This document shows positions 12,143 through 58,949 of a stretch of DNA of 64,000 nucleotides, piece by piece. Position numbers and translations under genes: made by a program. The stretch lies in contig JACIXR010000007.1 of the NCBI GenBank assembly GCA_014360495.1, positions 44,501 to 108,500 on the forward strand, given 5' to 3'. Numbering within the stretch: position 1 is the first letter of the stretch; the number at the start of each line of letters is the position of its first letter. Source of the stretch: a bacterium (GTDB lineage: Bacteria; Armatimonadota; JACIXR01). Below the pieces are notes generated by a model. It was not told where the DNA came from, ran no database searches, and worked only from the letters and a program-made list of their open reading frames with translations.

Positions 12143-12173
12143 TATGTTAAACTTTTTTAGGAGAGTGATTTTT

Positions 12174-31652: not shown

Positions 31653-34025
31653 TCATTTCGCTTCCTTCAACTTTAAAACTGTAAGGGAATAAGGAGGCAG
31701 GCTGATTGTAAATCTATTGCTAACTCCCTCTATAATCTTGCTTATCGGTGCAACACGCCTCGGCTGGGAGAAGCTGTTCTCCTCATCGGGGGAATTGCCC
31801 GTGAGGATTACCATTTCCCCTTGCTTCTCCAGCCTCCCGCCGTTGAGTTCGAGCTCGCCGTTCTGCCACTTATCGCTCGTGTTCACTATTTTGATGAAGA
31901 CCTTCCCGCTATTTGTATCTTTTGTGGCGGAAGCAAGGACAGGAGAAGGCATTCTCTCCTCTATCTCGTGTATTAGCTTGCCATCCAGATAGCAACTTAT
32001 CTTATTGCCCTTTATCTCTATTTTGATGTCATACCATCGCCCAGTTTCCACGCTTCCCTCCACCGTCTCGCTGACAATGCTCTTGCCTCCACCCACACAT
32101 CTCTCTATCGCATGGCGGGTATTCCCCCAACCACCTATATTCCACCAATACCAGTTGTTATCATCCTTCACAGCGAACATAATGAGGAATCCCTCAGCAC
32201 CACCCAACTTCCTCGCCTTTAGGCTTATCGTATAATCGCTCCAATTGACATCTCCATAAACAATTCTTACATCCGTTTCAAGGGATTTCTGTTGGAGAGA
32301 ATAATCCCTCACTTCCCAATCGCCGCGCACGACCCTCCATCCTTCCAATCCCTTTGAGAAATCTGCTCCAAATATCAATTTATCCTCTTTATACACCTTC
32401 AAATCCTTGAATTCCGCTTGGGTAAGCCAAGTTCCCAAGCCAATTGCTCCCTTTAGAACGGGCTTCTCATCCTCCATTCGCACCTCAACGGGAAGAACAA
32501 CATCTCCCCTATTTTCGCTGAACAACATCTGAACATAATAGGAGGGAGTGCCGTAGACATTCGCGTTATCAAAACAGATTAAGTCAGGATTCCATCTTCT
32601 GTCGTTCACATTGACGAAAAGGGGAGCATAAGAAGCCATGATAACAATATCGCTGTTTCTCTCCAATCCAGTCATAAAGGCAGCCTCGCCTATGGCTGCC
32701 CTCAAATTCCCCGTCCCGCAGTTTTGGGTTACCGCATACTCTCCGACGAAAATGCTCGGTCCATTGCGGTCGTATTTATCATAACGAGTGGAATTAGCTA
32801 TGAACCACTCAGGGGAATTATAATAATGCTCATCAACGATTTCCATAGGAGCGCTTTTAACTGGCACATTCGCGATTAAAGTCAATTTAGGATACTTCTC
32901 TTTTATGGCTTTATAAAATAAAGCATATCTTTCCTCATAAGCTGGTCCCCAATTCTCGTTTCCGATTTCAACGAAGCGTAGCTTGAAGGGATGGGGATGC
33001 CCGTTCTTCTCCCGTAGAGCCCCCCATTTGCTCGTGGTCGGACCTATGGCATATTCAATAGCCGCAAGGGCATCCTCAATCCATTCATCCATCTTCTCAA
33101 GGGGAGCAATTTCCTGATGGGACATCCCACAATTGACAGCGAGTATCGGCTCCGCTCCCAGCGCCTCGCATAAAAGCAGATATTCGTGAAGCCCGAGCCC
33201 CTCCGTCGTCCTATAACCCCAGAGATTCCATCTTCCCGGTCTTTCCGCTATATCCCCGATGGTATTCCGCCAGCGTAACGCATGGTCAAGCCGCTCTCCC
33301 TCAACGAAACAACCGCCAGGAAATCTGACGAAGGACGGCTTCAAATCCGCAAGCATCTGCATAAGGTCGGAACGAAAGGGCAGACCCTTCCACCTATCCC
33401 TTGGCATAAGGGAAACTACATCCAGCCAGAGAGTTCCCAGAGAAGTCAAATAAATGACCAGGCGTGCGGAAGGGAAGGAATCCTCAGCGTGAAGGACAAC
33501 CTGAAACTTCTTCCAACTTGAATCAATCCCCTGAATGCGGGACTGAGCGTAGACTATTCCGCTTGGATGTTCCAAACTTACAAGTATATCGCCCCTATAA
33601 TTCCCATTACAGCGAGCATAAAGGGATAAATCGTAGAGCTTCCCTTTTTCTATCTTTATTCCCCAAAAGCCGGAGTTCGCAACACCTAGCCGTCCTCTCC
33701 CCAATTTTTTAACCGAAATCTTTAAGGAGCGAGGATTAGAGGGATTAAGGGGATGAGAGGAATCAACGGATATTTCTCCTTCTGCTTCCCCCTCCTGAAC
33801 TATATACCAACCAATCGGGGCATCTCCTTCTTCAAAATCCCTGTTTCTCACCAATTCAGCATAGAGCCCACCTTCCCCTGCGTGATTGATCTCCTCAAAG
33901 AAGATACCCCAGAGAAGAGGGCTCACTTTATGCAGCGGTTTCTGTATATCAACCGAGATAACCGCTTCTCCTGCGAAAAGGGATAAGCCGATTATCAGCA
34001 GGAATATAAAGACAAGCTCTCCCAT
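31653..34025 (-). CDS. Alpha-L-arabinofuranosidase, GH51 family, with extra C-terminal domain
   Basis: 790 aa. GH51 N-terminal signature LWGIFFEEINHAGEGGLYAELVRNRDFEE; VRFPGGCFVEG; catalytic-region EIGNENWG. Confidence 0.85.
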   Translation of the reverse strand: MGELVFIFLLIIGLSLFAGEAVISVDIQKPLHKVSPLLWGIFFEEINHAGEGGLYAELVRNRDFEEGDAPIGWYIVQEGEAEGEISVDSSHPLNPSNPRSLKISVKKLGRGRLGVANSGFWGIKIEKGKLYDLSLYARCNGNYRGDILVSLEHPSGIVYAQSRIQGIDSSWKKFQVVLHAEDSFPSARLVIYLTSLGTLWLDVVSLMPRDRWKGLPFRSDLMQMLADLKPSFVRFPGGCFVEGERLDHALRWRNTIGDIAERPGRWNLWGYRTTEGLGLHEYLLLCEALGAEPILAVNCGMSHQEIAPLEKMDEWIEDALAAIEYAIGPTTSKWGALREKNGHPHPFKLRFVEIGNENWGPAYEERYALFYKAIKEKYPKLTLIANVPVKSAPMEIVDEHYYNSPEWFIANSTRYDKYDRNGPSIFVGEYAVTQNCGTGNLRAAIGEAAFMTGLERNSDIVIMASYAPLFVNVNDRRWNPDLICFDNANVYGTPSYYVQMLFSENRGDVVLPVEVRMEDEKPVLKGAIGLGTWLTQAEFKDLKVYKEDKLIFGADFSKGLEGWRVVRGDWEVRDYSLQQKSLETDVRIVYGDVNWSDYTISLKARKLGGAEGFLIMFAVKDDNNWYWWNIGGWGNTRHAIERCVGGGKSIVSETVEGSVETGRWYDIKIEIKGNKISCYLDGKLIHEIEERMPSPVLASATKDTNSGKVFIKIVNTSDKWQNGELELNGGRLEKQGEMVILTGNSPDEENSFSQPRRVAPISKIIEGVSNRFTISLPPYSLTVLKLKEAK

Positions 34026-40423: not shown

Positions 40424-43054
40424 TTAATCCTCCGCTTCGCTAAGGAAGGAAAGCCGCTCCAAGAGGAGCTGCTTCCTCTCCAACAGTTCCTGCCTTATCG
40501 CCTCCTGCTTCTCTAAAATCGCCTGCGGCGCGCGGGAACGGAACAGCTCGTCTTGGAGCTTCTTCTCCACCTTCTCCAACTCCCTCTCCACTTCCTCCAA
40601 TTCCTTTTTCGCCCTCTTAATTTCCTCCTCCACATTGGCTGTCTTCTTCACCTCAAGAAGCAAATCCACACTCCCCACCCTTGACCTCATATACTTCCCC
40701 TCCGAAGGTAAGCTCTCCAAAACGCTTATATCACTCAATGTGCAGAGGTTCTTTATTATCTCCTTCTCCTCCTCAGCGATATGCGGAGTCTCTGCCTCGT
40801 TGTAATAGAGGAGAAGTTGGGGCTTCGCGCGATGGACGAATCCCAACACTTTCCTCATATTCCTCGTTTCCTTAACCACCTCTTGGAAGAACTTGACCCT
40901 CTCCTCAATCTCCTCATCAAGTGGATATCTCTCCTCGTCAGGCCAATCAGCAAGGGATATGCTATCTCCTTGATGGGGTAGCTTCTGCCAAAGCTCCTCT
41001 GTGACAAAAGGCATAAAGGGATGGAGTAAACGAAGGGAGGTGTCCAGCACTTCTACAAGGATTGAGCGAACAACTTCATCTTCCATTCTTTGCTTTGATA
41101 TCTCAATATACCAGTCACAGAAATCGTCCCAGAAGAAGTTGTAAATTGCGAGGGCGGCGGAATCGAAATTATAGCTCTCCAATCCCTTTGTCACTTCCCT
41201 AATAGTCTTGCGAAGCCTCGTCAGTATCCATTTATCAAATGTATCCTTAATCTCTAACTCTTCTATGGGCTTTACCTCTCCAGTTATGTTGAGGAGAACG
41301 AATCTCGTGGCGTTCCATATCTTGTTGCAGAATGTCCTCGCCATCTCTATTCTGTTGGTAGAGAAGCGGAGGTCCTGACCGGTTGAAGCCTGAACGGCGA
41401 GACCAAAGCGAACAGCATCAGCACCGTATTTATCAACGAGCTCAAGAGGGTCAATTCCCGTTCCCAATGATTTGCTCATCCTCTTCCCCTTCTCCGTGAG
41501 AACTGTGGGATGAACATAGACCTTCTCAAAGGGGATATCCCCCATAAACTCCAAACCCATGATTATCATCCTACCAACCCAGAGGAAAAGGATATCCCTC
41601 GCGGTAAAAAGAACATCCGTAGGATAATATTTAAGAAGGTCGTCCGTTTCCTCCGGCCAGCCCAAAGTAGCAAAAGGCCAAAGAGAAGAGGAAAACCAAG
41701 TATCCAAAACATCTTCCTCCTGCCTCACCCTCTTTCCGCATTTCGGACACTTCGTCATCTTCTCCACAGAGGCAAAATATTGGTTGCAGGAAACACACCT
41801 ATATAATGGCAAGGGATGCCCCCACCATATCTGACGAGATATGCACCAGTCCTTTATATTTCTAAGCCATTCCAAAAGTATATTCTTAAACCTCTCAGGG
41901 ATTATCCTTACCTCTTCCTCCTCCAAAACCTTAATCGCCGGCTTCACCAATTCGTCCATCTTCAGGAACCACTGCTCAGATAAATATGGCTCTATGACGC
42001 TTCCACATCTATAGCAATGCCCTATTACAGTAATATAGGGCTCGCTCTTCTCCAATAAAGCCACCTTCTCCAATTCCTTCACAATCCTCGCCCTGGCGGC
42101 GAACCTATCCATCCCCTCATATGCCTTGACCTTAACAATCCTTCCCCTCTTATCCATAATCACGAACTTCTTCAATATATCCTTCGGCTCAAAGCCGTGC
42201 CTCAAGGCAACCTCATAATCATCCATATCGTGGGCGGGAGTTATCTTAACCGCTCCAGTCCCGAATTCAGGGTCAACGAAGGGGTCAGCTATCAAGGGGA
42301 TCTCCCTTCCCGTAAAGGGGAGGACGAACTTCCTACCAACCCATTCCTTGTATCTTTCATCATCGGGATGCACGGCAACCGCTACATCGCCCAGCATTGT
42401 TTCTGGACGAGTCGTGGCAACGGTTATGAAGAAAGAGCCATCATCCACAGGGTACTTTATGTAGTAAAGAGTTGTCTCTTCCTCCCTGTTCTCAACCTCG
42501 AGGTCGGAGAGGGAAGTTTGACAGCGGGGACACCAATTGACCATCCTTAACCCCTTATATATAAGCCCTTTCTCGTAAAGCCTAACGAATGCTGTTCTGA
42601 CCGCCTTTGAATAATCCTCATCAAGAGTGAAGCGGAGCCTGCTCCAATCAAATGAATAGCCCATCCTCTTGAACTGCTTTATAATCGTGTCCCCATATTT
42701 TTCCTTCCACTCCCAAACCTTTTTCAAAAAGGCTTCCCTTCCTATATCAAATCTCGTCTTCTTCTCCTTAGCTAACTCCCTCTCAACCACATATTGAGTG
42801 GCAATGCCGGCGTGGTCGGTGCCGGGGAGGCAGAGAGCCGAATAGCCTCTCATCCTTTTATACCTAATAACGATATCCTGAAGGGTGTAATTGAGGGCAT
42901 GACCCATATGGAGGGAGCCGGTTATGTTTGGTGGGGGAATCGTTATGCTGAACTTCTTCCCTTCGCCGGAGGGACGGAATAAATCCTTCTCCTCCCAATA
43001 CTTATACCATTTCTCCTCTATGGATAAGGGGTCATAGCGAGTGGAAATGCTCAC
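40424..43054 (-). CDS. valS: Valine--tRNA ligase
   Basis: 876 aa. [15 protein letters not shown] (HIGH motif), KMSKS, C-terminal coiled coil. Confidence 0.95.
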
Positions 43055-45462
43055 TCTTCATCACCCCTACTTGCCAAGGCGGGTGCTTTATCCCTCGCCA
43101 AGGCGATTTCTAATACCTCGTCCATATGCTCAACGAATTTGAAATCCAATTCCTCAAGCACCTTCGGGCTGACCTCGGCAAGGTCCTTTTGATTCTCCTT
43201 GGGCAAGATAACCGTCTTTATCCCCGCTCTATGAGCGGCAAGAACTTTCTCCTTCACACCTCCAATTGGCAAGACTTTCCCTCGGAGGGTGATTTCTCCC
43301 GTCATAGCGACATCCTTCCGAACGGGGATTCCGCTGAGGGCTGATGCAAGAGCACAGGCAATCGTTATTCCTGCGGATGGACCATCCTTGGGAATAGAAC
43401 CTTCGGGAACATGGATATGAATATCGGTCTTCTCCTGAAATCTCTCATCTATCCCCAGCTGTTTTGCCCTTGAGCGAATGTATGAAAGAGCAGCCCTTGC
43501 TGACTCCTTCATAACCTCACCTAACCTACCCGTTAGAATAAGCTCTCCCTTTCCCTTGAGGACGGCAACCTCAACTGAGGTAGTATCCCCTCCCACAGGA
43601 GTCCAAACCAAAGCCGTCGCCACTCCAACCTCGTCCTCCTTCTCAGCCACTCCATATCGGAAGCGAGGGGCACCAAGATATTCGGGTATTGCCTCCGCAT
43701 CTACAATCGTCTTTTCCTCCTTCCCCTCCGCCACCTTTACCGCCACCTTCCTGCAAATATTCGCAATCTCCCTCTCAAGATTCCTCACTCCCGCCTCTCT
43801 CGTATACTCCCTTATGATTCTCATAAGGGCATCATCGGTTATCTCCAACATATCCTCCTTCAAACCGTGCTCATTCCTCTGCTTGGGAAGAAGGAAATAT
43901 TTAGCGATGTTTAGCTTCTCCTCCTCAGTATAGCCGGGAAACTCTATCACTTCCATCCTATCCTGAAGGGCAGGTGGGACGGTATCCAACACATTTCCCG
44001 TGCAGATAAACATAACCTCCGAGAGGTCAAAGGGAACCTCAAGATAATGGTCGGAGAAGGCGTAATTTTGCTCGGGGTCGAGCGCCTCAAGGAGGGCTGA
44101 GGAAGGGTCGCCGCGAAAATCTATTCCTATTTTATCAATCTCGTCAAGCATAAAGACGGGATTTTTCGTCCCAGCTGTCCTTATCCCCTGGATTATCCTT
44201 CCCGGCAGGGCACCCACATAGGTCCTCCTATGCCCCCTTATCTCGGCTTCATCCCTCACTCCACCGAGCGATATCCTGACGAACTTCCGTCCCATTGCCC
44301 TTGCTATTGAACGCCCTATGGAGGTCTTTCCCACACCGGGCGGACCTATGAAGGCGAGAATGGGTCCTTTCGTTTTATCCCTCAACTTCCGCACGGCGAG
44401 GAACTCCAAAACCCTTTCCTTCACCTTCTTCAATCCATAATGGTCCTCGTCCAAAACCTTCCTCGCATATTCTATATCCAAGTTATCCTCCGTGCGTTTA
44501 TTCCAGGGAAGCTCAACAAGCCAATCCAACCATGTCCTAATGACCGCAGCCTCGGGAGCGATGCTCGGCATCTTGGACAATCTCTCCAACTCCTTCATCG
44601 CCTTCTCCTTCACTTCCTCCGGCATCCCCGCCGCCTCTATCCTCTTCTTATATTCTTCATACTCCGATACCCCCTCCTCCTTCATCCCCAATTCCTCCTG
44701 CAGAGCCTTGAGCCGCTCCCTCAAAATAAATTCCCTCTGCGATTCCCCTATCTCTTTCTCCACCTTGCTCTTTATCTTACCCTCTATCTCCTGCACTACC
44801 AGCTCCTTCCTCAGAATGGTTGCGAGCTTCTCTAAACGCTCCCTCACGGAAAGAGTGGCAAGAAGCGCTTGCTTATCCTCTAAGCTTATGGAATAAGGCG
44901 GTCCAAGATAATAGGCAATCAAATCCGCTACCCTTGATGGGTCTGTTATCGTCTTTATCTCGCCGACCAACTCGGGTGGAATCGTCTCAGCCACAGGTGA
45001 GATATTCCTGCTCATCCTCCAAAGCTGTTCAAAGAGGGAAATCACAAGCCTCCTGTTCGCCTCAAGCTCCTCCGGCGAATCCTCAACTATATCATTAAGC
45101 TCCTGAATCCTAACTAAAAAATAGGGGTCGGTTTGCAAGAACTCCTCTATCTTTACCCTCTTAACTCCACCAATAAGCGCCCTCACAGTATTGTTGGGAA
45201 GGGGCAACATCCTCACTATCTCACCCACAACCCCTATATCATAGAGGTCCTCTGGACCGGGGTCGTCCTCATCGGGGTCCTTTTGCGCCACCAAAACAAT
45301 GAGCTTGTCCTTTTGAACCGCTTCCTCAATTGCTTTATATGAGCGCGGACGCCCAATCTCAAGGGGAGCTAAAATGTTGGGAAATATCACCGTCCCCCTC
45401 CTCAGAGGGATGAGGGGAAGTTCAGAAGGAATTTTCCTTTCTTGCTCTTTTTCCTCTGGCAT
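43051..45462 (-). CDS. lon: ATP-dependent Lon protease
   Basis: 803 aa. Walker [10 protein letters not shown]; protease active-site region KDGPSAGIT. 4-nt overlap with valS. Confidence 0.95.
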
Positions 45463-45476
45463 ATTAGATTCACTCC

Positions 45477-46703
45477 TTACGATACCGCAGTTTCGCCTTC
45501 AAATTCAATAAGGGGAGGATTCAAACCCCTTACCACATCTTTATTGATGATACAGCGTCTCGCTCCCTTCATAGAGGGAAGCTTGAACATAACATCAAGC
45601 ATAATCTCCTCCAAAATGCCCCTCAACGCCCTCGCGCCCGTTCCTCTCCTTATCGCCTCCCTCGCAATCTCATCAATTGCCTCCTCCTCAACTATAAGCT
45701 CAACCCCTTCCATCTGAAAGAGAACCTGATATTGCTTCAAGAGGGCGTTTTTAGGCTCTGTGAGAATCCTCTTCAGCTCTTCAATTCCCAAGGGGTCAAG
45801 CACAGCGACGACTGGCAATCGCCCTATGAGCTCGGGAATGAGCCCAAACTTATGTAAATCCTCGGGGAGGACCTTATGCATAATATCCCCATGCTCCTCT
45901 TCCTCCTCAACCGCTCTAAAACCTATAGCGGAGCTCTTTGTCCTCTGCTCTATTATCTTGTCCAATCCCTCAAAGGTCCCACCGCAGATGAACAAAATAT
46001 TTGTGGTATCAAGAGGAATGAACTCCTGATAGGGGTGTTTTCTTCCGCCTTGAGGAGGGACATTCGCTATCGTTCCCTCCAATATCTTGAGAAGCGCCTG
46101 CTGAACTCCCTCACCGGATACATCCCTCGTTATAGAGGGATTCTCCGATTTCCTCGCTATCTTATCAATTTCATCTATATACACAATCCCCCTCTTTGCC
46201 GCTTCAAGGTCCCAGTCAGCAGCTTGAATAAGACGAAGAAGGATGTTCTCCACATCCTCGCCCACATAACCTGCCTCAGTTAAAGTAGTGGCATCGGCGA
46301 TGGCAAAGGGAACATCAAGGCGCCTCGCAAGTGTTTGGGCAAGGAGCGTCTTGCCTACCCCTGTGGGACCTATAAGCAAAATATTGCTCTTCTGAAGCTC
46401 GACATCGTCCCTATTAGAAGAGGATATCCTTTTATAGTGATTATAAACCGCGACCGACAAAATCTTCTTCGCTCTATCTTGTCCCACGACATACTGATTG
46501 AGGAAATCGTAAATTTCCTGGGGCTTGGGAAGCTTTCCGCTATAGCTAGTCCTTTGCGGTCTGAAGCCATGCTCCTTCAAGAGCTCGCTCGCTATCTCAA
46601 CGCAATCGGGGCAAATAGCTCCTTTCTCCCCTATGATTAAACGACCTACCTGGCTCTCCGTTCTTCCGCAGAATGAACATCTTCTTTCCTCAAGCCGGCT
46701 CAT
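45477..46703 (-). CDS. clpX: ATP-dependent Clp protease ATP-binding subunit ClpX
   Basis: 408 aa. N-terminal zinc-binding CSFCGR...CPDC; Walker A GPTGVGKT. Confidence 0.95.
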
Positions 46704-47311
46704 TTCGCCACCTGAAGCTCCTTCGTCTTGTCCCGAGGATAGATTATGTTATCAATTAGCCCGTATTCCTTCGCTTCAAGAGCTGACATATAATAGTCCC
46801 TCTCCGTATCCCTCTCTATCTTCTCAATCGGCTGACCGGTGTGATGAGCGAGAATCTCGTGGATTATCCTCTTTAGCCTCATTATCTCCTCAGCCTGTAT
46901 TTTTATATCCGTAGCTTGCCCGAAAATTTGCCCCCAGGGTTGATGGATGAGTATGCGGGAATAGGGAAGGGCAAATCTCTTGCCCTTAGCTCCTCCGGCA
47001 AGCAGGACAGCAGCTATGGAAGCAGCCTGTCCAATGCATATCGTTGAGACATCCGGCTTGATGAACTGCATAGTATCGTAAATCGCCAATCCGCTTGTTA
47101 CCTCCCCGCCAGGGGAATTGATATAGAGGTCTATATCCTTCTCCTTGTCCTCCCTTTCCAAATAGAGAAGCTGAGCAATGACGAGATTAGCTACCTCACT
47201 GTTAATCGGCGTCCCGATGAAGATAATCCTATCCTCTAAAAGGCGAGAGAAGATATCGTAAGCTCTCTCTCCGCGCGCGGACTGCTTTATTACAATGGGC
47301 ACAAGGCTCAT
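46700..47311 (-). CDS. clpP: ATP-dependent Clp protease proteolytic subunit ClpP
   Basis: 203 aa. Typical ClpP sequence ([10 protein letters not shown]..., [19 protein letters not shown]). Confidence 0.95.
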
Positions 47312-48606
47312 TTCTCTTCCTCCTTTTTAATTTTAACCGATTTCTTGAGAAATTCAAGAATCTTCCTCAAATAGATACCACCGACCACCTCATCCATCCT
47401 TCCCGTCTCCTCCAGAAGGCGCCGCATACTCTCCTGCGGCACCTGATTCGCCTCCGCAAGCTCCTCAACTCTCTTATTTATGTCCTCTTCGCTGACAGAA
47501 ATCCCTTCCCTCCTACCAATTTCCTGCAGGATGAGCCTCCTCACAAGTATATCCCTTGCATCTCTTTCCAGCTCCATCTGCAATCTCTCCAAAGTCATAT
47601 TATTCTCCGAGAGATAGGTATCCAAATCATATCCCCGCCTCTCCAAGCTCTCCATTAAGCGAGCGAACCTTTCACTCACCTCCTCCTGCAACATCGGCTC
47701 GGGAAATTCAACTTGAGAAAGCTCTACGAGGCGGGTAAAGATTTCCCTTTCCAGCTGCTCCTCTGCGAGCTTCCTCGCTTCTTCCTCCAATTCCTTCCTT
47801 ATGTTCTCCCTCAATTCATCCAAAGTATTGAACTCGCTCGCCTTGCGAGCGAACTCATCATCCAATTTGGGAAGAACCAGCTTGCTTATCCCCTCCACCC
47901 TCACCCTGAGCACGGCACTTTTTCCCGCCAGCTCGGGATTATTGAAATCGGGAGGATACTGCACTTCAATTTCCTTCTCCTCTCCCACCTTCATCCCCTC
48001 AAGATGGACATCAATGGGAGGAATGAGGTTTTCATCTCCAACTATTATTCTATCCTTCTTCTCCTCCCTGTAGGGTTGTCCATCAACATAAACTTGGATA
48101 GCAACATCCACCACATCTCCTCTTTTCACTTGCTTTCTTTTCAGAGGTTGCGTCTCCGCAAAGCGATGGCGAAGGACATCCAATTTATTCTCAATATCCT
48201 TTTCCTCTACCTTTATTGGCTTATATTCCACCTCAATGGTATCGTAGGGAGGGAGGTTTACGGTGGGTTGGGTATAAACTTTAGCGTTGATGAGGACATC
48301 TTCTCCCTCATCAAACTTCTCAATCTCTATCTCGGGATTGGTATAGGGATGGATATCCTTTTCCTCTATAACCTGCTTATAGACCTCTTCAGCCAATATC
48401 CGACCGGCTTCCTCCTTGAGGTAAGTCTCCCCGATGTATCGGCGGACCAAGGTCAGGGGGGCTTTGCCCCTTCTGAAGCCAGGGACCTGCACTCTTTTTC
48501 TAAAATATTCAAGCGCCTTACTGATTGCCTCCTCCGCTTTTTCCTTTTCAACCTTGATATTGAGAGAGATATAGCAGGGGGCTAACTTCTCAAGGGATAC
48601 ATCCAT
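47308..48606 (-). CDS. tig: Trigger factor
   Basis: 432 aa. Ribosome-binding motif region GFRRGKAP; central PPIase-like domain. 4-nt overlap with clpP. Confidence 0.9.
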
Positions 48607-48634
48607 AATTGGCTTTTCCTCCTTCTAAAAAATT

Positions 48635-48710
48635 TGGAGCGGGCGACGGGACTCGAACCCGCGACCTTCGGCTTGGAAGGCCGATGCTCTACCATGTGAG
48701 CTACGCCCGC
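48635..48710 (-). tRNA. tRNA-Gly (anticodon UCC), CCA encoded
   Basis: Reverse complement GCGGGCGTAGCTCACATGGTAGAGCATCGGCCTTCCAAGCCGAAGGTCGCGGGTTCGAGTCCCGTCGCCCGCTCCA. Folds as a cloverleaf by eye: 7-bp acceptor, anticodon loop CTTCCAA, T-loop GGTTCGAGTCC. Confidence 0.9.
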
Positions 48711-48712
48711 TC

Positions 48713-48800
48713 TGGTGGGCGAGGGGAGAGTTGAACTCCCACAGGTGTTGAACCCATCGGATCCTAAGTCCGACGCGTCTACCAGTTCCGCCACTCGCCC
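48713..48800 (-). tRNA. tRNA-Leu (anticodon UAG), type II with long variable arm, CCA encoded
   Basis: Reverse complement GGGCGAGTGGCGGAACTGGTAGACGCGTCGGACTTAGGATCCGATGGGTTCAACACCTGTGGGAGTTCAACTCTCCCCTCGCCCACCA. Anticodon loop CTTAGGA, long variable arm. Confidence 0.88.
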
Positions 48801-51471: not shown

Positions 51472-51502
51472 TAATTCAAAAATTTAGGAGGTTGATTTGG
51501 AT

Positions 51503-52870
51503 ATGAGTAGTATGGTTTATGAAAATTGGCAGGAGATGCTCTTCGGCATCTCAAAAAAGCCGATAAAGTGTGGCTTAGGCTTGGAGATTGGTTCAGGGGA
51601 GGTTATCCCCGAGATTAAGCCGCATCCTCGCCCCGGAATGGAAGCCAGCCTTGATTCACTGCTTGAAGAATACAAACGCATTACAAATGATATAATGGAG
51701 AGGGCAATAAAGCTTGGATTTCCCTCCATAATGTTGGAAATAGAACATGTTGCCCAACTCACCCTTAACCCGGCTTGGGGTGAAGAGGTCGTAAAGATTT
51801 GTAAGGATATCCTCCATAAATTTCATCAAAGATACGGGATAAAATGCGCTCTACGAGCCACGATAGCTGATGTGAGGAGGAGTGAGCATAATTTGAGGAA
51901 GAGCAAGGAGACAGACCTATTATTTGAATCTTTTGAAAGATGTGCCCGAGCGGGAGCAGATGTCCTCTCTATTGAATCAATAGGGGGCAAAGAGGTCTTC
52001 AATTACGCTCTCACTCGTCAGGATTTGCCAGGCATTCTCTTCGCCATAGCTGTATTGGGAAGCAGGGATATGGAATTTCTTTGGGATAGAATCGTTGAGA
52101 TAGCGGAGCAATACGAATCCATCCCGGGTGGAGATACGGATTGTGCCCACGCTAACACCGCGATGATGCTTGCTGGCGGGATGGTAGGGGGAGACTTCCC
52201 GCATACCGTTGCCGCTCTAATTAGAGCAATGGCGGGAGCCCGCTCTTTGGTTGCGGTGGAAAGGGGAGCTAAAGGACCTCTTAAGGATTGTGGATACGAA
52301 AACCCCATAATAAAGGCAATCACTGGTGTCCCAATATCCATGGAAGGGAAAACAGCTGCTTGCGCTCATATGGATTTAATGGGAAATCTCGCCGCCTCGG
52401 TATGCGACTTGTGGTCTAATGAGGCTGTTGAGTATAGAGATATGTTTGGTGGCACAACGATTGCCGTCTTCACGGAGATACTTGGCTACGATGCTTCTCT
52501 GTTCAACACAGCCCTCGCTACAGGCTACGCTGAGTGCTTAAGAGATTTGCTGGTTGCTTCTGATAAATATCGTGACCCTCAAGCATTGGTCATCTCACCA
52601 GATGTAGCCTGGGAAATCGGAAAAGTAGTAGCCGATACCCAAGGATATTACTTAAGGGCGAAAAGGGCTGTTCTTAAGGCTGGCGAAATAATTAAAAGAG
52701 AGTTAAAGGAAGGGAATTTACAAATTCCCCAACGGGAATTAGACGCCTTAGATTCCGCTCTCCTGCAACTTTCTTCCCTTCCTGACGATGAGGAGAAATT
52801 CACTCACGATATGAAGGGCAAATACGAAACACTTGTTGAGGATTTCCTTCCATCTTCCTATGACATCTAA
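51503..52870 (+). CDS. mtaB: Methanol:corrinoid methyltransferase, MtaB family
   Basis: From the Met at 51503 the protein reads SMVYENWQEMLFGISKKPIKCGLGLEIGSGEVIPEIKPHPRPG...EYKRITNDIMERAIKLGFPSIMLEIEHVAQLTLNPAWGEEV...YGIKCALRATIADVR. This closely parallels recalled Methanosarcina MtaB (SMAYANADEMTFGVSKYPVKAGLDLEIGAG...EYERITTDVMERAV...GIKCALRHTIGDIR). Conserved Cys positions (DTDCAHAN, AACAHMD) are present. The ORF track start is TTG 51497. Confidence 0.85.
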   Translation: MSSMVYENWQEMLFGISKKPIKCGLGLEIGSGEVIPEIKPHPRPGMEASLDSLLEEYKRITNDIMERAIKLGFPSIMLEIEHVAQLTLNPAWGEEVVKICKDILHKFHQRYGIKCALRATIADVRRSEHNLRKSKETDLLFESFERCARAGADVLSIESIGGKEVFNYALTRQDLPGILFAIAVLGSRDMEFLWDRIVEIAEQYESIPGGDTDCAHANTAMMLAGGMVGGDFPHTVAALIRAMAGARSLVAVERGAKGPLKDCGYENPIIKAITGVPISMEGKTAACAHMDLMGNLAASVCDLWSNEAVEYRDMFGGTTIAVFTEILGYDASLFNTALATGYAECLRDLLVASDKYRDPQALVISPDVAWEIGKVVADTQGYYLRAKRAVLKAGEIIKRELKEGNLQIPQRELDALDSALLQLSSLPDDEEKFTHDMKGKYETLVEDFLPSSYDI

Positions 52871-52885
52871 AAGGAGGTAATGCAA

Positions 52886-54631
52886 ATGTCTATCTTTAAA
52901 AATGTTTTAGCTTCGCTTTTGAGGGAAAGAAAAAGCTTTTACCCCTGCCTCTCCGCTAATCCAACGCCTACATTTGAGCAAATGAAGGCAGTTAATAGCT
53001 TCTTCCCCGCTGCTCATAAAGACCCCGAGAAGATGTCCCATTTAGCGATTGCAGGTCATAAATTAATCGGATTTGACGCAGTAAGAATCCCCTTCTGCCA
53101 AACTATTGAAGCGGAGGCGCTTGGTTGTGAGGTTTTCCTTGGTAGCGACAACATACCAACTGTCATATCCCATCCTTATCGCATAGGGGATAAGTTTATC
53201 CTTCCCGACGATATCTTAAAAAGGGGAAGAATACCCGTCCTCTTGGAAGCAATTAAAATTATCAAAGACGAAGTTAAGGAAGTGCCCCTCATAGTTGGAC
53301 TTGTTGGCCCTTTCACAATAACCGGCTATCTGTTTGGGATGACCCAACTTCTTATGCAGATGGCTATTTCACCCGAGGAGATTCTTCCTTACATGGAGAT
53401 GGCCCTACAGGTGAATGAAATTCTTGTTAAAGCTGTTGAGGAGGCGGGTGCTGACATAATCTGTGTTGAGGATATGACCGCCTCCACTGATATGATTAGT
53501 CCAGATATGTATAAAGATTTTATTCTTCCCTATCACGAAAAACTTTTTTCCTTTATATCTCTCCCCTCAATTCTCCACATTTGCGGGAATGTTACCCCTA
53601 TAATCGGATATATGGCTGAAACTGGTGCTGACGCCTTAAGCATTGATGATAAAACAGACTTGAGGAGGGCAAGAGATATTACTAAAATGAAAGTTACTTT
53701 GCTGGGTAATCTTAATCCTTCCACTACCCTTCTTCATGGGGACGAGAAAAAAGTTAGGGAAGCAACAAGAAAAGCCATCCGGGATGGAATCGACATAGTT
53801 GCTCCTGGCTGCGCCCTCCCCCTTGGTACCCCCTCTTCTAACCTGCGTGCGATGGTTGAGGAAACGCATAAGGCAAGCCTACCAAAGACCTTCACAGGAA
53901 TATCTGCTCCCATCTATCCCTTCAGACTCTACGGAATTGAAGAGAAAAAGGGAAAAGAAATAACCCCCGAAGTGGAAACTCCCTTTCCCCGTATAAGGGA
54001 AGCAGTGCTTAAAGGTAATAAAGAAGAATGCAGGAAGGCGACCGAGGAAGCCCTTTCAATAGCCAATCCCGAAGAAGTAATAGAGAAGGGATTGGTTAAG
54101 GCAATGGATGAGGTAGGGAAATTATGGGAAGAAGGCTACTTCTTCCTTCCCCAAGTTATGCTCTCCGCTGATGCTCTAATGGAGGGGTTAGAACTATGCG
54201 AGAGGAAAATGGGGGCAAGGTTGAAGAAAAAGGGGAAAGTGGTGCTTTTTGTGGCTAAAGGCGATATTCATACCATTGGCAAGAACATAGTGAAAGCACT
54301 CCTTTCTGCTTCTGGGTTTGAAGTAATAGATTTAGGAGTGGATATTGATGATGAGGAGGTTATAAGGGCAGTGAAGAAGCATAAACCGGTTCTTTTGGGG
54401 GGTTCGGCACTTATGACCACGACTATGTCTGCATTTCCCCGCATCGCCAAAAGACTTCTGGAGGAGGGTATAGAAATCCCCTTTGCCTGTGGAGGAGGAG
54501 CAGTTAATGAGGAATTTTGTGATACATTCCCCCTGGGCATATATGGAGGTGAAGCGAGAAGGGCTCCGCTGATTGCTGAGGCAGCGTTAGAGGGTAAGAA
54601 TTGGAGAGAAATCAAAGAAATGTTTCGTTAA
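52886..54631 (+). CDS. Fused MtaA-like methylcobamide methyltransferase (URO-D fold) and MtaC-like corrinoid (B12-binding) protein
   Basis: N-terminal about 340 aa match recalled archaeal MtaA (RGRIPVLLEAIKIIKDEV; LHICGNVTPI; VAPGCALPLGTP). C-terminus has a helical cap plus Rossmann B12-binding domain with the DxHxxG motif (KGDIHTIGKN) and GGSALMTTT. AGGAGG RBS 8 nt upstream of ATG 52886; 15-nt gap after mtaB. Confidence 0.85.
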   Translation: MSIFKNVLASLLRERKSFYPCLSANPTPTFEQMKAVNSFFPAAHKDPEKMSHLAIAGHKLIGFDAVRIPFCQTIEAEALGCEVFLGSDNIPTVISHPYRIGDKFILPDDILKRGRIPVLLEAIKIIKDEVKEVPLIVGLVGPFTITGYLFGMTQLLMQMAISPEEILPYMEMALQVNEILVKAVEEAGADIICVEDMTASTDMISPDMYKDFILPYHEKLFSFISLPSILHICGNVTPIIGYMAETGADALSIDDKTDLRRARDITKMKVTLLGNLNPSTTLLHGDEKKVREATRKAIRDGIDIVAPGCALPLGTPSSNLRAMVEETHKASLPKTFTGISAPIYPFRLYGIEEKKGKEITPEVETPFPRIREAVLKGNKEECRKATEEALSIANPEEVIEKGLVKAMDEVGKLWEEGYFFLPQVMLSADALMEGLELCERKMGARLKKKGKVVLFVAKGDIHTIGKNIVKALLSASGFEVIDLGVDIDDEEVIRAVKKHKPVLLGGSALMTTTMSAFPRIAKRLLEEGIEIPFACGGGAVNEEFCDTFPLGIYGGEARRAPLIAEAALEGKNWREIKEMFR

Positions 54632-54659: not shown

Positions 54660-57600
54660 TTAGAAGGAGCGGGTGAGGTCGAGCCTGAGACCGACATTGT
54701 TCTTCCCCTTGAAGTTATCGGTGTAGTAGCCGGACAAGCTGAGGGAGTTCTCAGGATTTATGTTGCGAGAATAGGAGAACCTGTAGGTTATTCCACCAAC
54801 CTTGTCTCCCGCAATTGAGGAGTAGTCAAGGCTAACAGAGGTATCAAGCGTCTCATAAGCGGAAAGCTTGCCGGAGATGGCAAAAAGGCTCTTGTAAACT
54901 CCCTTATTTTCCCTCTCTATGAAGTTGTATTCGTGGCATCCCTTGAAGGAAAGCTTATCGTTGAGAGGGAATGCAATCTCCCAATTGAGCTTTCTGGTAA
55001 GCTTCTTATTTGGGTCGGGAACATTATCAAGAAGCGCAATCTTCAAGTTGAACTTCGGGGAAGGAGTGTATTGAAGTGCATACTGCTTGTTCATCTTTCC
55101 ATTCATATAATTGCTATCCAGAATGTATTCACCAGAAAGGACTGGAGAGCCCTGATATTTCAAGACGACCCTCTTGGTATTGAGGACATTTCCCTTTTGG
55201 TCCTCGGGATTTCTCAACAAAGAAAGGGTGAAGGTCTTCCCATCAAAGGGATAGACGATATCCAATCCCCTCGTCGTCTTGTCGTTCTGCCCGCTCCTAT
55301 CCTTGAAGGTGAAGCTGAGCTTATAGGGGGCACCTTGAGGTTGATAATTAGCCTGAAGCAGGCGGTAAGAGTTGGATTTATCTCCGAGGGACTGGATTCC
55401 ATATGCGAGATTGCCAGTTAAACCTGGGATGAAAGTCCTCGTTAAGGAGAATTCCTGCTTCTTTCCGTCCTTCCCGTTTTGCGTCATCTTGATGTTCTCC
55501 GCTTTAAACTGGGATTGGGAATCAAGTTTTTGAACAAGAGCTATCCTCCTGAAGCTGTGCTCCGCGCTTTCCTTAAAGGAAAAGCTCAAGGTTCCCGCTT
55601 TTCCTTTAAGCAAAGGAGAGTTGATATCAATGCTTCCTTCGTCAATTCTCTTGCCATCCTCCAGATTTTTACGAGAAAAGTTAAGGGCGTAGGAGAAGTT
55701 TTTCTTCAAAGACTGGTTAAAGTTTATAACGGTCAAATCGGACTGAAATTCCTTATCCCCTTCCTTCCTGTATCCCTGCATCCTCTGGAGTTTGAGGTGA
55801 GCATTGGCGAAGGCTTTCTCAACTATCAGGTTATAGATGTCGTTGGAACGATTAACATCGCTAACCTGCTTGGTGGAATCCAAAGTGAGATAGGCTTTCA
55901 GATTATTCTTGCCGGTGAATGCCAAGTTATGGACGCTATGGGTTGTGGATTTGCCCCACATCCCGTCGCTCCTCGTGATATCCAAGCTCTCTATCTTGGT
56001 GATGGAGGTGGAGAAGGCAAGATTCTTTGAGAGAGGCAATGCAAGGAAGAAGTCCTTCTTCTCCGCGGACCTCTCCTGGGCAAGGCGTCCCTTGTCAGCC
56101 TCTGCTAAATCCGCAAATCTCGTGAACGATGGGTCTATGGTTTGAGTTGCGAAGCGGAAAATAGGCTGGTCCTTCACTTTCAGCTCTATGCTCTTCCCGT
56201 CAATTGAACCTTGAGAGTCCCCTATCTTGCGAGAGGATAGAGAAAGGGTCAAGCCCGGCAGGAGGTTATCAAGCTTGAAATTACCGCTCAAGAGGGATTT
56301 CTTTATTCCCCATTCATTGGCAAATCTCTTCTTTTCCGGGTCGGTCAAATCTCCGAAACGCCTGAACCCCTCGCTGAACTCACTCTTATAGAACGAGATT
56401 TGCCACTTATCGCTCTTCAATTGTAGGCTGTTGCCCTTCCAACCTTCTTTCCCATCCAATAAGCTAGCGATGCTAAAGGAAGTCTGCAATTTAGGCGAGA
56501 AGTTGAACGAACCCTCAATGGTCTTCCTCGCCAACCCCTTTTCCTTTGCGAGCTGACCAGCGTCGGGCTCAGTTAAATTGCCAAAGCGAGCGAAATCCCG
56601 TCCAACTTCCTGCTTGCTGATTGAAAGGGAGAAATTCTTCCCCTTCAAGTCCAATTTCCCCCTCTCAATTCCATCCTTCTCATCTTTTATCCTCGTCTGG
56701 GAAAGGTTGAGGGTAATATTGGGGAGAAGATTCTTGGAAAGTTCCAGTGAATTCCTGCTTATCCCAATCTCCTTCGCCCATATTTTCGCTTCCGGCTCGT
56801 TCAAATCCTTCCCCCTCACGAAATCGGAGGTTATGCTTTGCTGGGTTAGACGGAGGAACTCGTTGTTATTGCCCTTTAGCTCTATCTGCCTCAATTTTCC
56901 CTCCCCTTTACCGTCGGTGGCGGATTTGTAAACAGTGGAAAGGGAAAGCGAATCGGAGAGCTTTATCTGCCCAGAGATTATCTGCTTGGTGATTCCCTTC
57001 TCCCTTGCCACTCCTTGGTTGCCCTTCGTTTGGGGGTCAACGGTTTGGCGAGTGAAGGAAAGGGAAAAAGCGGAGCTTTGGTAGCCAACTCCAAACTTCT
57101 TCGTGCCCGCCTCCTGCTTGAGGAAGGCAACATCCTTGCCGTTTAGATTATCGGGAATTCCCTGAGCGAGGAAATCCTTGTCTATCTCCTGATAGAAGAG
57201 GGTCAGCTTCCCCTTCCCCAAGGAGTAATCCAACCAGTTGGCGAAAGCCTTGCCTTTCTGGGAGGGAGCAGGGGCAGCGTTATCCCTTGTCATACCAGCA
57301 AGATAGTTATTCGTTGGTGATGTTCTGCTGAAGAAGAGGAGTCCCCTCCAAGTCGCATTGGAGCTCAACTTTGAGGTCAAGTCACTGCCGACAATCCAAG
57401 TCTCCATCTTATCCTGACCCGCTACAGCGGGGCGGAAGAAAGTAAATAGGCTGAGGGTAGATGAACCGCCGTTGAACGCAAGCTGGAGAGGCAGTCCGCT
57501 TGGAGATTGATTCTGCTTATTCGGGTCATAGTGATAAGAGACGATGAGGGTTCCCGATTTTATGTCCCCAGGGAGGAGAATCGTTCCATTAGCGTAATCA

Positions 57601-57854
57601 ATGATATAATCTACATCCCGCTTGAGGAAGCGCCCATTTGCGATTACCTTCTCGCTTCCCTCCACTATCCCCCTATGGGAGAGATAGAATACGCCACCCT
57701 TTACCACCTTCAGGGTGTCTGTGTAGAAAAGGGCTCCCTGTACGGCTGGCGCCTCATTCTGAAACCTCAAGGCTCCATTGGGCGCCGGCAATTCAAGGGA
57801 AAAAGCAAGGGAAGCTATCAAGCTAATTAAACTCAAAAATAGGAAACGCTTCAT
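54660..57854 (-). CDS. Giant outer-membrane-like protein with internal ~45-aa degenerate repeats and C-terminal aromatic residue
   Basis: Signal peptide MKRFLFLSLISLIASLAFS, taking the start at the internal Met 57854; the ORF track start is 57884. At least five repeats of type [D/E]F.RFG.L.[ED]P.... (DFARFGNLTEPDAG..., GFRRFGDLTDPEKK..., SFTRFADLAEADKG...). Ends ...GLRLDLTRSF, as in beta-barrel OMPs. Confidence 0.5.
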   Translation of the reverse strand: MKRFLFLSLISLIASLAFSLELPAPNGALRFQNEAPAVQGALFYTDTLKVVKGGVFYLSHRGIVEGSEKVIANGRFLKRDVDYIIDYANGTILLPGDIKSGTLIVSYHYDPNKQNQSPSGLPLQLAFNGGSSTLSLFTFFRPAVAGQDKMETWIVGSDLTSKLSSNATWRGLLFFSRTSPTNNYLAGMTRDNAAPAPSQKGKAFANWLDYSLGKGKLTLFYQEIDKDFLAQGIPDNLNGKDVAFLKQEAGTKKFGVGYQSSAFSLSFTRQTVDPQTKGNQGVAREKGITKQIISGQIKLSDSLSLSTVYKSATDGKGEGKLRQIELKGNNNEFLRLTQQSITSDFVRGKDLNEPEAKIWAKEIGISRNSLELSKNLLPNITLNLSQTRIKDEKDGIERGKLDLKGKNFSLSISKQEVGRDFARFGNLTEPDAGQLAKEKGLARKTIEGSFNFSPKLQTSFSIASLLDGKEGWKGNSLQLKSDKWQISFYKSEFSEGFRRFGDLTDPEKKRFANEWGIKKSLLSGNFKLDNLLPGLTLSLSSRKIGDSQGSIDGKSIELKVKDQPIFRFATQTIDPSFTRFADLAEADKGRLAQERSAEKKDFFLALPLSKNLAFSTSITKIESLDITRSDGMWGKSTTHSVHNLAFTGKNNLKAYLTLDSTKQVSDVNRSNDIYNLIVEKAFANAHLKLQRMQGYRKEGDKEFQSDLTVINFNQSLKKNFSYALNFSRKNLEDGKRIDEGSIDINSPLLKGKAGTLSFSFKESAEHSFRRIALVQKLDSQSQFKAENIKMTQNGKDGKKQEFSLTRTFIPGLTGNLAYGIQSLGDKSNSYRLLQANYQPQGAPYKLSFTFKDRSGQNDKTTRGLDIVYPFDGKTFTLSLLRNPEDQKGNVLNTKRVVLKYQGSPVLSGEYILDSNYMNGKMNKQYALQYTPSPKFNLKIALLDNVPDPNKKLTRKLNWEIAFPLNDKLSFKGCHEYNFIERENKGVYKSLFAISGKLSAYETLDTSVSLDYSSIAGDKVGGITYRFSYSRNINPENSLSLSGYYTDNFKGKNNVGLRLDLTRSF

Positions 57855-57902
57855 AGTTTCTCTCACCTCCTTGGGGACCACCATCGGGGTTCAACTCCCA
57901 AA

Positions 57903-58949
57903 TTAGAACTCAATCCTCGCTACCCCGATGACAATGCTTTTGTCCAAACGCTCACCTATCTTGGAGGGTAGAGAAGGTTTCTGGAAGGAGCTCGTTGCTT
58001 CCTTGAGAAGCTCGGAAACGGAGGTTTGGGGCTTAACCGCTACCTTTATCCCTTCAGCTGGAGAGGTTTCCTTAGCGGGTTGGGGTTGCTCTGCGACCTT
58101 TACCTCTTTCTGATTTGTCTCCACCTGTGCGGGTTTTTCGCTCGGCTGAGTTGAAGAAGTCTGGCTAACGGTTGGCTGGGAAACTTCCTCTTGTGGAACC
58201 TGAGGAACTACAACGGTTGCCTCTTGGGGAGCTTGGGAAATAGCTGGTGGAATCACAGCCTTCTCCCGCCTTGTGGTTTCCTTTACCTTCTCTTTAGGAA
58301 CCACCCTAGCCAACCTCTTAGCAGTAGCAGCAGGCTTGACCTCCCTTTTTACGGGTTCACGAGAGGACAGGATTCTTTGAGCGACTGCAGGAGTGGTGGG
58401 CGAGGTCGTGGGGTGATGGATGGGGAGAGCGAAGAAAACGAGGGAAGCGGCAGCAGCAAGAGTGGTGAAGCCAATCGCAATGCGACGCAAGAAGATGGGT
58501 CTCCTCTCTATTGCGGCGTATATCCTCTGCCTGAGATAGCGAGGAGCTTCCACCTCGGGAAGGGAATGGAGAAGCTCTTGCAGCTTCTTTTCTCCTTCCA
58601 GCTCTTCCTTGCAATCCCCGCACATAGCGATATGCTCCTCAACCTTCTCTTTCTCGGCTTCGGAGATATCGCCATCCGCATAGAGGGTCAGCAAGGGGCG
58701 AACGACCTCGCATTCCTGCTCCTTCGCAACCCTTGCCATAATCCTCTCTCTGAGGGAGATGGGAGGCTGAACCTCCTCAACCTGGCGGGCGAAGCTCTTT
58801 ACACTCTCCAGCTCCCTCAACTCGCTCCTGCACCTCTCACACTCTTGGAGGTGCCACTCAACACTTTCCCTTTCCGCTTTGGAGAGTTCTCCGTCCAAGT
58901 AGGCGGAAAGGATGGGAGAGATTTGCTCGCAGCTGATTCTTCTTGCCAT
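57903..58949 (-). CDS. Anti-sigma factor with two tandem zf-HC2 domains, one TM helix and Pro/Thr/Gln-rich periplasmic region
   Basis: 348 aa. CEQISPILSAYLDGELS...HLQECERCRSEL, then a second copy EVVRPLLTLYADGDIS...HIAMCGDCKEEL; TM helix IAIGFTTLAAAASLVFFALPI; low-complexity P/T/Q/V-rich tail. Confidence 0.7.
   Translation of the reverse strand: MARRISCEQISPILSAYLDGELSKAERESVEWHLQECERCRSELRELESVKSFARQVEEVQPPISLRERIMARVAKEQECEVVRPLLTLYADGDISEAEKEKVEEHIAMCGDCKEELEGEKKLQELLHSLPEVEAPRYLRQRIYAAIERRPIFLRRIAIGFTTLAAAASLVFFALPIHHPTTSPTTPAVAQRILSSREPVKREVKPAATAKRLARVVPKEKVKETTRREKAVIPPAISQAPQEATVVVPQVPQEEVSQPTVSQTSSTQPSEKPAQVETNQKEVKVAEQPQPAKETSPAEGIKVAVKPQTSVSELLKEATSSFQKPSLPSKIGERLDKSIVIGVARIEF

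Follow-up and report, generated by a model that had tools for sequence, protein, structure and literature searches.

A candidate family of very large outer-membrane beta-barrel proteins, built in part from repeats and encoded with an anti-sigma-like partner, in Armatimonadota

Do the degenerate repeats of a giant, uncharacterized protein form a free-standing surface domain, or are they part of a membrane-embedded sheet? This question is raised by a gene for a protein of 1064 amino acids (aa) in a 64,000-nucleotide stretch of an Armatimonadota genome (contig JACIXR010000007.1, positions 44,501 to 108,500), hereafter the window. An earlier note on this DNA had proposed a surface-protein repeat of about 45 aa, carried by a protein with a signal peptide and a beta-barrel-type C-terminal Phe, and had named self-comparison, a Pfam search of a single repeat and structure prediction as checks. 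Our analysis indicates that the protein very probably belongs to the barrel class of outer-membrane proteins and is in part an ancient tandem array of double-hairpin-plus-loop units. Its gene and the gene directly upstream form a conserved two-gene module. For the evidence as a whole, the explanation towards which we lean, if only slightly, is an undescribed family of very large outer-membrane barrels coupled to an inner-membrane partner. The coordinates of all features are collected in Table 1.

The open reading frame (ORF) that contains the gene covers 54660..57884 on the minus strand, including an upstream extension. The ATG at 57854, which the earlier note had given as the start, is the true start, because it is preceded by a strong Shine-Dalgarno sequence (AAGGAGGTG) and because the NCBI model of the identical protein (P0001) comprises 1064 aa. 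Several database gene calls begin 10 codons too early (window 57855-57884, minus strand, as seen in the homologue alignment), and the apparently conserved 'PKEVR' of these over-extended calls is the translated Shine-Dalgarno sequence. Both protein ends are as previously described. The N-terminal signal peptide, MKRFLFLSLISLIASLAFS, is conserved among homologues, as judged by reading the sequences without a dedicated predictor. The C-terminus reads ...LRLDLTRSF, and a terminal Phe is present in 93 of 125 full-length relatives with the pattern [LF]-D-[FLY]-[KR]-[ST]-x-F; some of the relatives that lack it have an F followed by one or two extra residues.

The repeats are real, but their period is 76-80 aa and not the ~45 aa first proposed. 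Four copies of the motif F-x-R-x-[GAK]-[DN]-L-x-[ED], in shorter form F-x-R-[FG]-x-[DN]-L, begin at aa 345, 421, 497 and 577 (1064-aa numbering) with spacings of 76, 76 and 80 residues, against a mean of 0.00075 occurrences in 20,000 shuffles of the protein, none of which reached four. Plain self-BLAST of the protein gave no internal matches and Tandem Repeats Finder detected no tandem repeat in the DNA; both approaches are blind here because the duplication is ancient and the units are only 26-36% identical in pairwise comparison. Profile-profile comparison with hhalign, performed after cutting an 11-sequence family alignment into segments, nevertheless demonstrated significant periodicity: the four full units match each other with E values of 1.5e-6 to 1.8e-13 over 46-68 columns. 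A truncated fifth unit matches the full units (E 1.6e-7 to 5e-4) and is also recovered by a hidden Markov model (HMM) of the repeat (E 1.3e-5), so that the 'at least five' copies counted earlier amount to four full units and one truncated one, with the motif itself in four. A possible sixth vestige at aa 217-262 gave no significant profile match to the units, seven control segments elsewhere in the protein gave no comparable match (best E 0.0018), and hhalign found no internal repeat signal in aa 626-1064. The origin of aa 263-625, about 40% of the strand run described below, by ancient tandem duplication of a four-strand plus helical-loop unit is therefore well supported. Single units had no match in Pfam or NCBIfam, and the repeat profile produced only chance-level matches to PDB sequences, in agreement with the initial impression that the repeat resembles no known domain.

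Structure prediction with AlphaFold2 placed these units within a continuous barrel-type run of strands. With a 12-sequence alignment, the predicted local distance difference test score (pLDDT) was 74 and the predicted template modelling score (pTM) was 0.48, with 49 strands from aa 203 onwards. With a 68-sequence alignment of distant relatives, pLDDT rose to 84.3 and pTM to 0.54, 537 residues reached a pLDDT of at least 90, and 51-53 consecutive strands filled the region between aa 123 and aa 1062. In both models the strand meander is unbroken and comes after a small beta-sandwich near the N-terminus (aa 42-109). One face of the strands is rich in L, F, I and Y and the other in S, K, T, N and Q, which is the signature of lipid-facing and lumen-facing surfaces, and the models contain the amphipathic antiparallel meander that characterizes outer-membrane barrels. 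Foldseek returned LptD, SprA, TonB-dependent transporters and the ApoB100 beta-belt as best matches, with template modelling scores (TM-scores) of at most 0.19 when normalized to the query and at most 0.39 when normalized to the target. In our reading, the model is a barrel-type sheet with a predicted curvature that matches none of the solved barrels with up to 26 strands.

Within this sheet, each repeat unit consists of exactly four strands and one loop of about 24 residues with a short helix. The fuller form of the motif, [DE]-F-x-R-F-G-D-L-x-E-x-[ED]...A-K-E-x-G-[IL]-x-[RK], holds most of the family-conserved residues, and its core (F-x-R-F-G-D-L...A-K-E-x-G-I-x-R) covers the helical loop and its junctions with the flanking strands. 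Nearly all other connections, on both sides of the sheet, comprise only 2-5 residues, and the longest connection outside the motif comprises 12. Since each unit is predicted as four membrane-type strands plus one loop, the repeats would be building blocks of the barrel wall. The C-terminus is periplasmic in all known outer-membrane barrels; if this also applies here, counting strands back from it would place the motif loops on the extracellular side. By the same models, the strands may close into a single barrel.

The size of the family depended strongly on the search method. A word-indexed homologue search recovered 13-14 proteins, 13 of them close homologues, even when profiles of distant members were used, and a scan of genome contigs gave four close relatives only. 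An exhaustive HMM search returned 717 clusters at 50% identity, of which 158 had E <= 1e-30, mostly 1000-1400 aa in length; the word-indexed search alone therefore badly underestimates the family. The repeat HMM detected one to seven copies in 182 of the 186 proteins fetched. In the 68-sequence alignment (mean identity 18%), positions conserved in at least 90% of sequences lie mainly in the motif, the N-terminal domain and the last Phe; those in the motif are F345 and G364, F421, L427, G440 and R443, F497, E507 and G516, and F577 and G596. Members are named only 'hypothetical protein' and come from Armatimonadota or unclassified metagenome-assembled genomes (MAGs). One cultured member was found, CCALI_02475 of Chthonomonas calidirosea T49 (UniProt S0EWJ6), to which UniProt gives the automatic name 'Autotransporter domain-containing protein'; domain searches give no support for this name. 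Two further large proteins without a Pfam match (1083 and 585 aa) follow CCALI_02475 on the same strand (locus L013, 9942-14982, plus).

The giant protein had no Pfam or NCBIfam match at E values up to 1. Pfam gave no significant match for three close relatives and six of seven distant ones, and only DUF2460 for the seventh, P0161. The full-length profile produced only chance-level matches to PDB sequences, and our literature search returned no description of this family or of single-chain barrels with 44-54 strands.

The gene directly upstream encodes a 348-aa protein, the partner, which consists of two zf-HC2 anti-sigma domains, one transmembrane helix, a low-complexity linker rich in P, E, T and V, and a conserved C-terminal segment. 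The zf-HC2 assignment (PF13490, E 5.6e-25, two stretches) is accompanied by H-x3-C-x2-C sequences at aa 33 and 106, and scores against NCBIfam anti-sigma models fall below the curated cut-offs, except for the RsrA-type TIGR03988 (77.4 versus 62.5 bits). The domain is doubled in the window, and distant orthologues retain the second copy only. Only 48 nt separate the partner stop codon from the ATG of the barrel gene, with no terminator predicted between them. The window partner is the first gene of its operon, is divergent from glyQ, and has no adjacent extracytoplasmic function (ECF) sigma-factor gene. In every one of the eight loci compared (the window, L001, L002, L004, L010, L011, L012 and L013), the barrel gene is immediately preceded, on its own strand, by a gene of this architecture; the loci include Chthonomonas, where the upstream protein has 401 aa, and relatives only ~18-24% identical to the window protein. 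Other neighbouring genes are common only to the closest relatives. These results demonstrate that the two genes form a conserved module. A C-terminal strand ending in F or L is kept in seven of the eight partners, and the partner C-termini at distant loci read RVDIITKQF, KMDVITKRF, RIVLVSGRF and IRIGFSTKL.

The arrangement recalls the FecA-FecR-FecI system and TonB with its TonB-dependent transporters, in which a barrel with an N-terminal periplasmic domain is likewise encoded with a single-pass inner-membrane protein. On the inner-membrane side, the parts that recall these systems are an anti-sigma domain in the cytoplasm, a long periplasmic linker rich in proline and, at the C-terminus, an element that could pair with another strand. 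The present system differs in that Plug, TonB_dep_Rec, STN and FecR domains and an adjacent sigma-factor gene are all absent, and in that some partners carry the anti-sigma domain twice and others no longer have its zinc ligands. A TonB-dependent transducer was considered and rejected on the lack of Plug, TonB_dep_Rec and STN domains in Pfam and NCBIfam searches.

The N-terminal beta-sandwich is the sole part of the giant protein with an outside relative. BLASTP matched it to a SprA-family protein, P0014 (E 9e-7 database-wide, 4e-8 pairwise), and its profile matched aa 688-731 of Flavobacterium SprA (6H3I_A, E 1.3e-4); weaker echoes were found in a pilin, a distal tail protein of phages and gene transfer agents, and DUF2460. 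The domain behaves as a small, mobile beta-sandwich module, and its presence does not indicate SprA orthology. In a related MAG, a gene ~3 kb away from the family member (L004, 14166-16853, minus; also in L005) encodes an 893-aa protein without Pfam annotation. This protein carries two copies of the SprA-like beta-sandwich, ends in ...LSLRF, has no F-x-R-F repeats and appears to be another kind of large outer-membrane protein that uses the module.

On this basis we propose how the two proteins could work together. The barrel protein would be made from the two-gene operon together with its partner, a single-pass inner-membrane protein. The layout of the mature protein is well supported: once the signal peptide is cleaved, a small N-terminal beta-sandwich is followed by about 50 consecutive amphipathic strands ending in a classical C-terminal Phe beta-signal, and insertion into the outer membrane by the beta-barrel assembly machinery (BAM) is expected from the known behaviour of such signals. 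The motif loops are probably arranged as a ring at one rim of the barrel, in all likelihood the outer one, and serve there as equivalent structural or binding elements. The partner would hold its zf-HC2 domains in the cytoplasm, cross the periplasm with its long disordered linker, and dock its terminal strand by beta-augmentation on the N-terminal domain of the barrel protein or on the barrel itself. Once docked, it could act as an envelope-spanning link that informs a sigma factor, encoded at some other site, of the state or occupancy of the outer-membrane protein. We offer this coupling of barrel-protein state to a distant sigma factor as a tentative model, and hold it with some doubt.

Several observations weigh against the picture of a single barrel coupled to an anti-sigma partner. 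The global confidence of the models is low (pTM only 0.48-0.54), and the counted strands are odd in number (49, or 51-53), which is unfit with both termini lying in the periplasm. A barrel of ~50 strands without a plug would have a lumen of ~10 nm. Such an opening sits poorly with a permeability barrier, and almost no long loops are available to close it. Mean-field coupling analysis (178 sequences, effective number ~148, gap artefacts dominant) gave no closing-pair signal, with too few sequences to show one; summed by strand pairs, it recovered adjacent strands, possibly as a proximity effect. As for the partner, three of the eight proteins (L010, L012 and L013) lack the zinc-binding Cys/His, and no sigma-70 or ECF gene lies within 6-8 kb at the loci examined, which covered the flanks of seven related loci. 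An anti-sigma role is therefore not assured. The contact between partner and barrel, for its part, is argued from gene linkage and sequence logic only.

These difficulties bear on an alternative in which the chain forms at least two barrels, or else a double sheet that is flattened and has no pore, and serves mainly as an abundant structural outer-membrane protein whose partner is merely a co-regulated stress sensor. The combination of low pTM and high pLDDT, which leaves the global arrangement uncertain, speaks for it, as does the difference in sequence between the repeat region (~20 strands) and the non-repeat region (~27 strands). For other bacteria, predictions of multi-barrel chains exist (PMC8346858), the polar inner face, rich in S, T, N and Q, could zip onto itself, and an unplugged ~10 nm pore would be physically implausible. 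No linker separates the two regions, however, given that no connection outside the motif exceeds 12 residues, and we consider this arrangement unlikely, though to be taken seriously.

At the other extreme stands the boldest form of the single-barrel proposal, namely that this is the largest single-chain membrane beta-barrel (~50-54 strands), with a partner strand inserted into or against it, forming an Armatimonadota-specific device that reaches from the cytoplasm to the outer membrane. In that case, the partner strand could supply the strand missing from an odd-numbered sheet or anchor a plug, and a single polypeptide would extend from a sigma-binding domain in the cytoplasm as far as the outer membrane. 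We regard this full version as quite unlikely. Among solved single-chain barrels, SprA, at 36 strands, is the largest in the literature searched, and the largest predicted ones are the 38- and 40-strand outer-membrane barrel families of Solan et al. 2021 (PMC8346858). As with the barrel proposed here, the single barrels of those families come from computation and exceed every solved one in size; by description only, the giant protein is set apart from them by about 10 more predicted strands and by its repeated helical-loop motif. What would be new here is the unprecedented predicted strand count, the distinctive repeated loop motif and the unusual conserved partner, outer-membrane barrels themselves being known.

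A further candidate is a translocon of type 9 secretion like SprA/Sov, a huge barrel that passes folded cargo and is plugged at rest by other proteins. SprA and the giant protein would both be very large single-chain outer-membrane barrels, and they have in common the beta-sandwich module (GS-x-x-V-x-x-x-G-x-x-L-x-x-G-x-DY-x-[IV]DY-x-x-G) found in P0014 and 6H3I_A. The predicted strand count exceeds the 36 of SprA, SprA has the highest query TM-score among the Foldseek matches listed, though a low one (0.18-0.19), and proteins with FlgD_ig domains are encoded near the gene in L004 and L013. The shared small domain, however, is not confined to these proteins: a pilin, phage tail proteins and an unrelated outer-membrane protein have it as well. 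Full-length similarity is absent: there is no match to SprA_N (PF14349) or any other Pfam or NCBIfam model, and the full-length profile misses SprA 6H3I in the PDB. At 1064 aa against ~2400 aa, the protein does not reach half the length of SprA and lacks its large cap-forming loops, nearly all of its connections being 2-5 residues long. The gene neighbourhood is another one, with no gldKLMN- or porV-like genes in the Pfam lists of the window and eight related loci (whole genomes were not searched), and the organisms are Armatimonadota rather than members of the Fibrobacteres-Chlorobi-Bacteroidetes group. We therefore judge a SprA-like translocon to be very unlikely.

A functional analogue of LptD, that is, a barrel for lipopolysaccharide (LPS) insertion in a phylum where LptD is hard to recognize, appears highly improbable. 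LptD, the 26-strand LPS translocon, also joins an N-terminal periplasmic beta domain to a large barrel with short turns; its structures are the best Foldseek matches (down to E 1.2e-6) and make up most of the top 15. Armatimonadetes encode core LPS synthesis genes (PMC5007114), and the gene looks like a conserved, single-copy one with housekeeping genes as neighbours. The Foldseek similarity is only local, however, with TM-scores of 0.10-0.25, and the giant protein has about twice as many strands and no LptD or OstA match in Pfam. Moreover, its N-terminal domain is a ~70-aa beta-sandwich and not an OstA jellyroll, and its partner is anti-sigma-like and resembles neither LptC, LptA nor LptE.

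The reading first put forward, here taken as a free-standing, adhesin-type surface repeat of ~45 aa on a conventional C-terminal barrel anchor, could draw on the automatic autotransporter name of the Chthonomonas orthologue and on the lack of a known domain matching the repeats, but it is scarcely credible now that each ~77-aa unit is predicted at a pLDDT of ~90 as four amphipathic, membrane-type strands continuous with the sheet, the motif-bearing part is a helical loop of only ~24 residues, and no Pfam model, the autotransporter beta-domain included, matches at E values up to 1. An autotransporter was rejected separately, as the strand run is continuous between aa 123 and the C-terminus, only ~100 aa are left for a passenger, and Pfam gives no match.

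Table 1. Features of the barrel gene, its product and the upstream partner gene (window coordinates; aa numbering of the respective protein).
Feature	Position	Strand	Evidence and remarks
Partner gene, 348 aa	57903..58949	minus	Pfam zf-HC2, NCBIfam, architecture; directly upstream of barrel gene
Partner conserved C-terminal segment, aa 304-348	57906..58040	minus	Partner alignment; beta-strand-like end ...SIVIGVARIEF
Shine-Dalgarno sequence AAGGAGGTG	57864..57872	minus	Read from sequence; ends 9 nt before ATG at 57854
Putative giant outer-membrane beta-barrel protein, coding sequence	54660..57854	minus	1064 aa + stop; ORF list, Shine-Dalgarno, NCBI model P0001, homologues
Sec-type signal peptide, aa 1-19, MKRFLFLSLISLIASLAFS	57798..57854	minus	Sequence; predicted helix of low pLDDT
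Small beta-sandwich domain, aa 42-109, GSE-x-V-x-x-NG...DY-x-IDY-x-x-G	57528..57731	minus	AlphaFold2 strands; BLASTP; profile
Putative barrel wall, aa 123-1062	54669..57488	minus	~51-53 predicted amphipathic strands, uninterrupted
Truncated repeat unit, aa 263-314	56913..57068	minus	Keeps ...AREKGITKQ, without F-x-R-F; hhalign, repeat HMM
Repeat unit 1, aa 315-391, DFVRGKDLNEPEAKIWAKEIGISR	56682..56912	minus	Motif, hhalign, repeat HMM
Repeat unit 2, aa 392-467, DFARFGNLTEPDAGQLAKEKGLAR	56454..56681	minus	Motif, hhalign, repeat HMM
Repeat unit 3, aa 468-546, GFRRFGDLTDPEKKRFANEWGIKK	56217..56453	minus	Motif, hhalign, repeat HMM
Repeat unit 4, aa 547-625, SFTRFADLAEADKGRLAQERSAEKK	55980..56216	minus	Motif, hhalign, repeat HMM
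Non-repetitive C-terminal strand part, aa 626-1064	54663..55979	minus	~27 strands, AlphaFold2; almost only 2-5-residue turns
C-terminal beta-signal-like strand, aa 1053-1064, NVGLRLDLTRSF	54663..54698	minus	Sequence; terminal F in relatives

The surroundings of the module in the window were also surveyed. Just downstream of the barrel gene, on the opposite strand (51497-54631, plus), lie a full-length homologue of MtaB, the B subunit of methanol-cobalamin methyltransferase (E 4e-196), and a fusion protein in which a URO-D/MtaA-like methyltransferase is joined to two B12-binding domains. Judged by homology, the pair would amount to a corrinoid methyltransferase system of the methanol type, here in a bacterium of Armatimonadota-like character. 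On the other side, the order glyQ-glyS-HD phosphohydrolase-DUF4350, divergent from the partner gene, is kept in close relatives. A housekeeping block on the minus strand (40424-48800) has the order valS, lon, clpX, clpP and tig; two tRNA genes come next, at 48638-48800. Very large proteins of glycoside-hydrolase type (790-1451 aa) are encoded at 11997-15965 (plus) and at 17491-21168, 26950-31305 and 31653-34025 (all minus), and the families represented in the window include GH123_N, DUF5696, a Glyco_hydro_42-like family and an alpha-L-arabinofuranosidase with a carbohydrate-binding module. By their predicted families, these large enzymes point to a polysaccharide-degrading lifestyle.

If the ~50 strands of the giant protein do form one barrel, the size limit of single-chain barrels would move well past SprA (36 strands solved; 38-40 predicted in other families). 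This would raise the questions of how BAM folds a protein of ~50 strands and how a lumen of ~10 nm stays sealed. The four-strand-plus-loop repeat represents a well-preserved example of barrel growth through double-hairpin duplication. The invariant pairing of the barrel gene with a gene for an anti-sigma-like inner-membrane protein suggests that Armatimonadota, a diderm phylum about which little is known, have an envelope-spanning system that has escaped study. If the boldest form of the proposal is true, this system would constitute a new kind of envelope-spanning signalling or tethering device.

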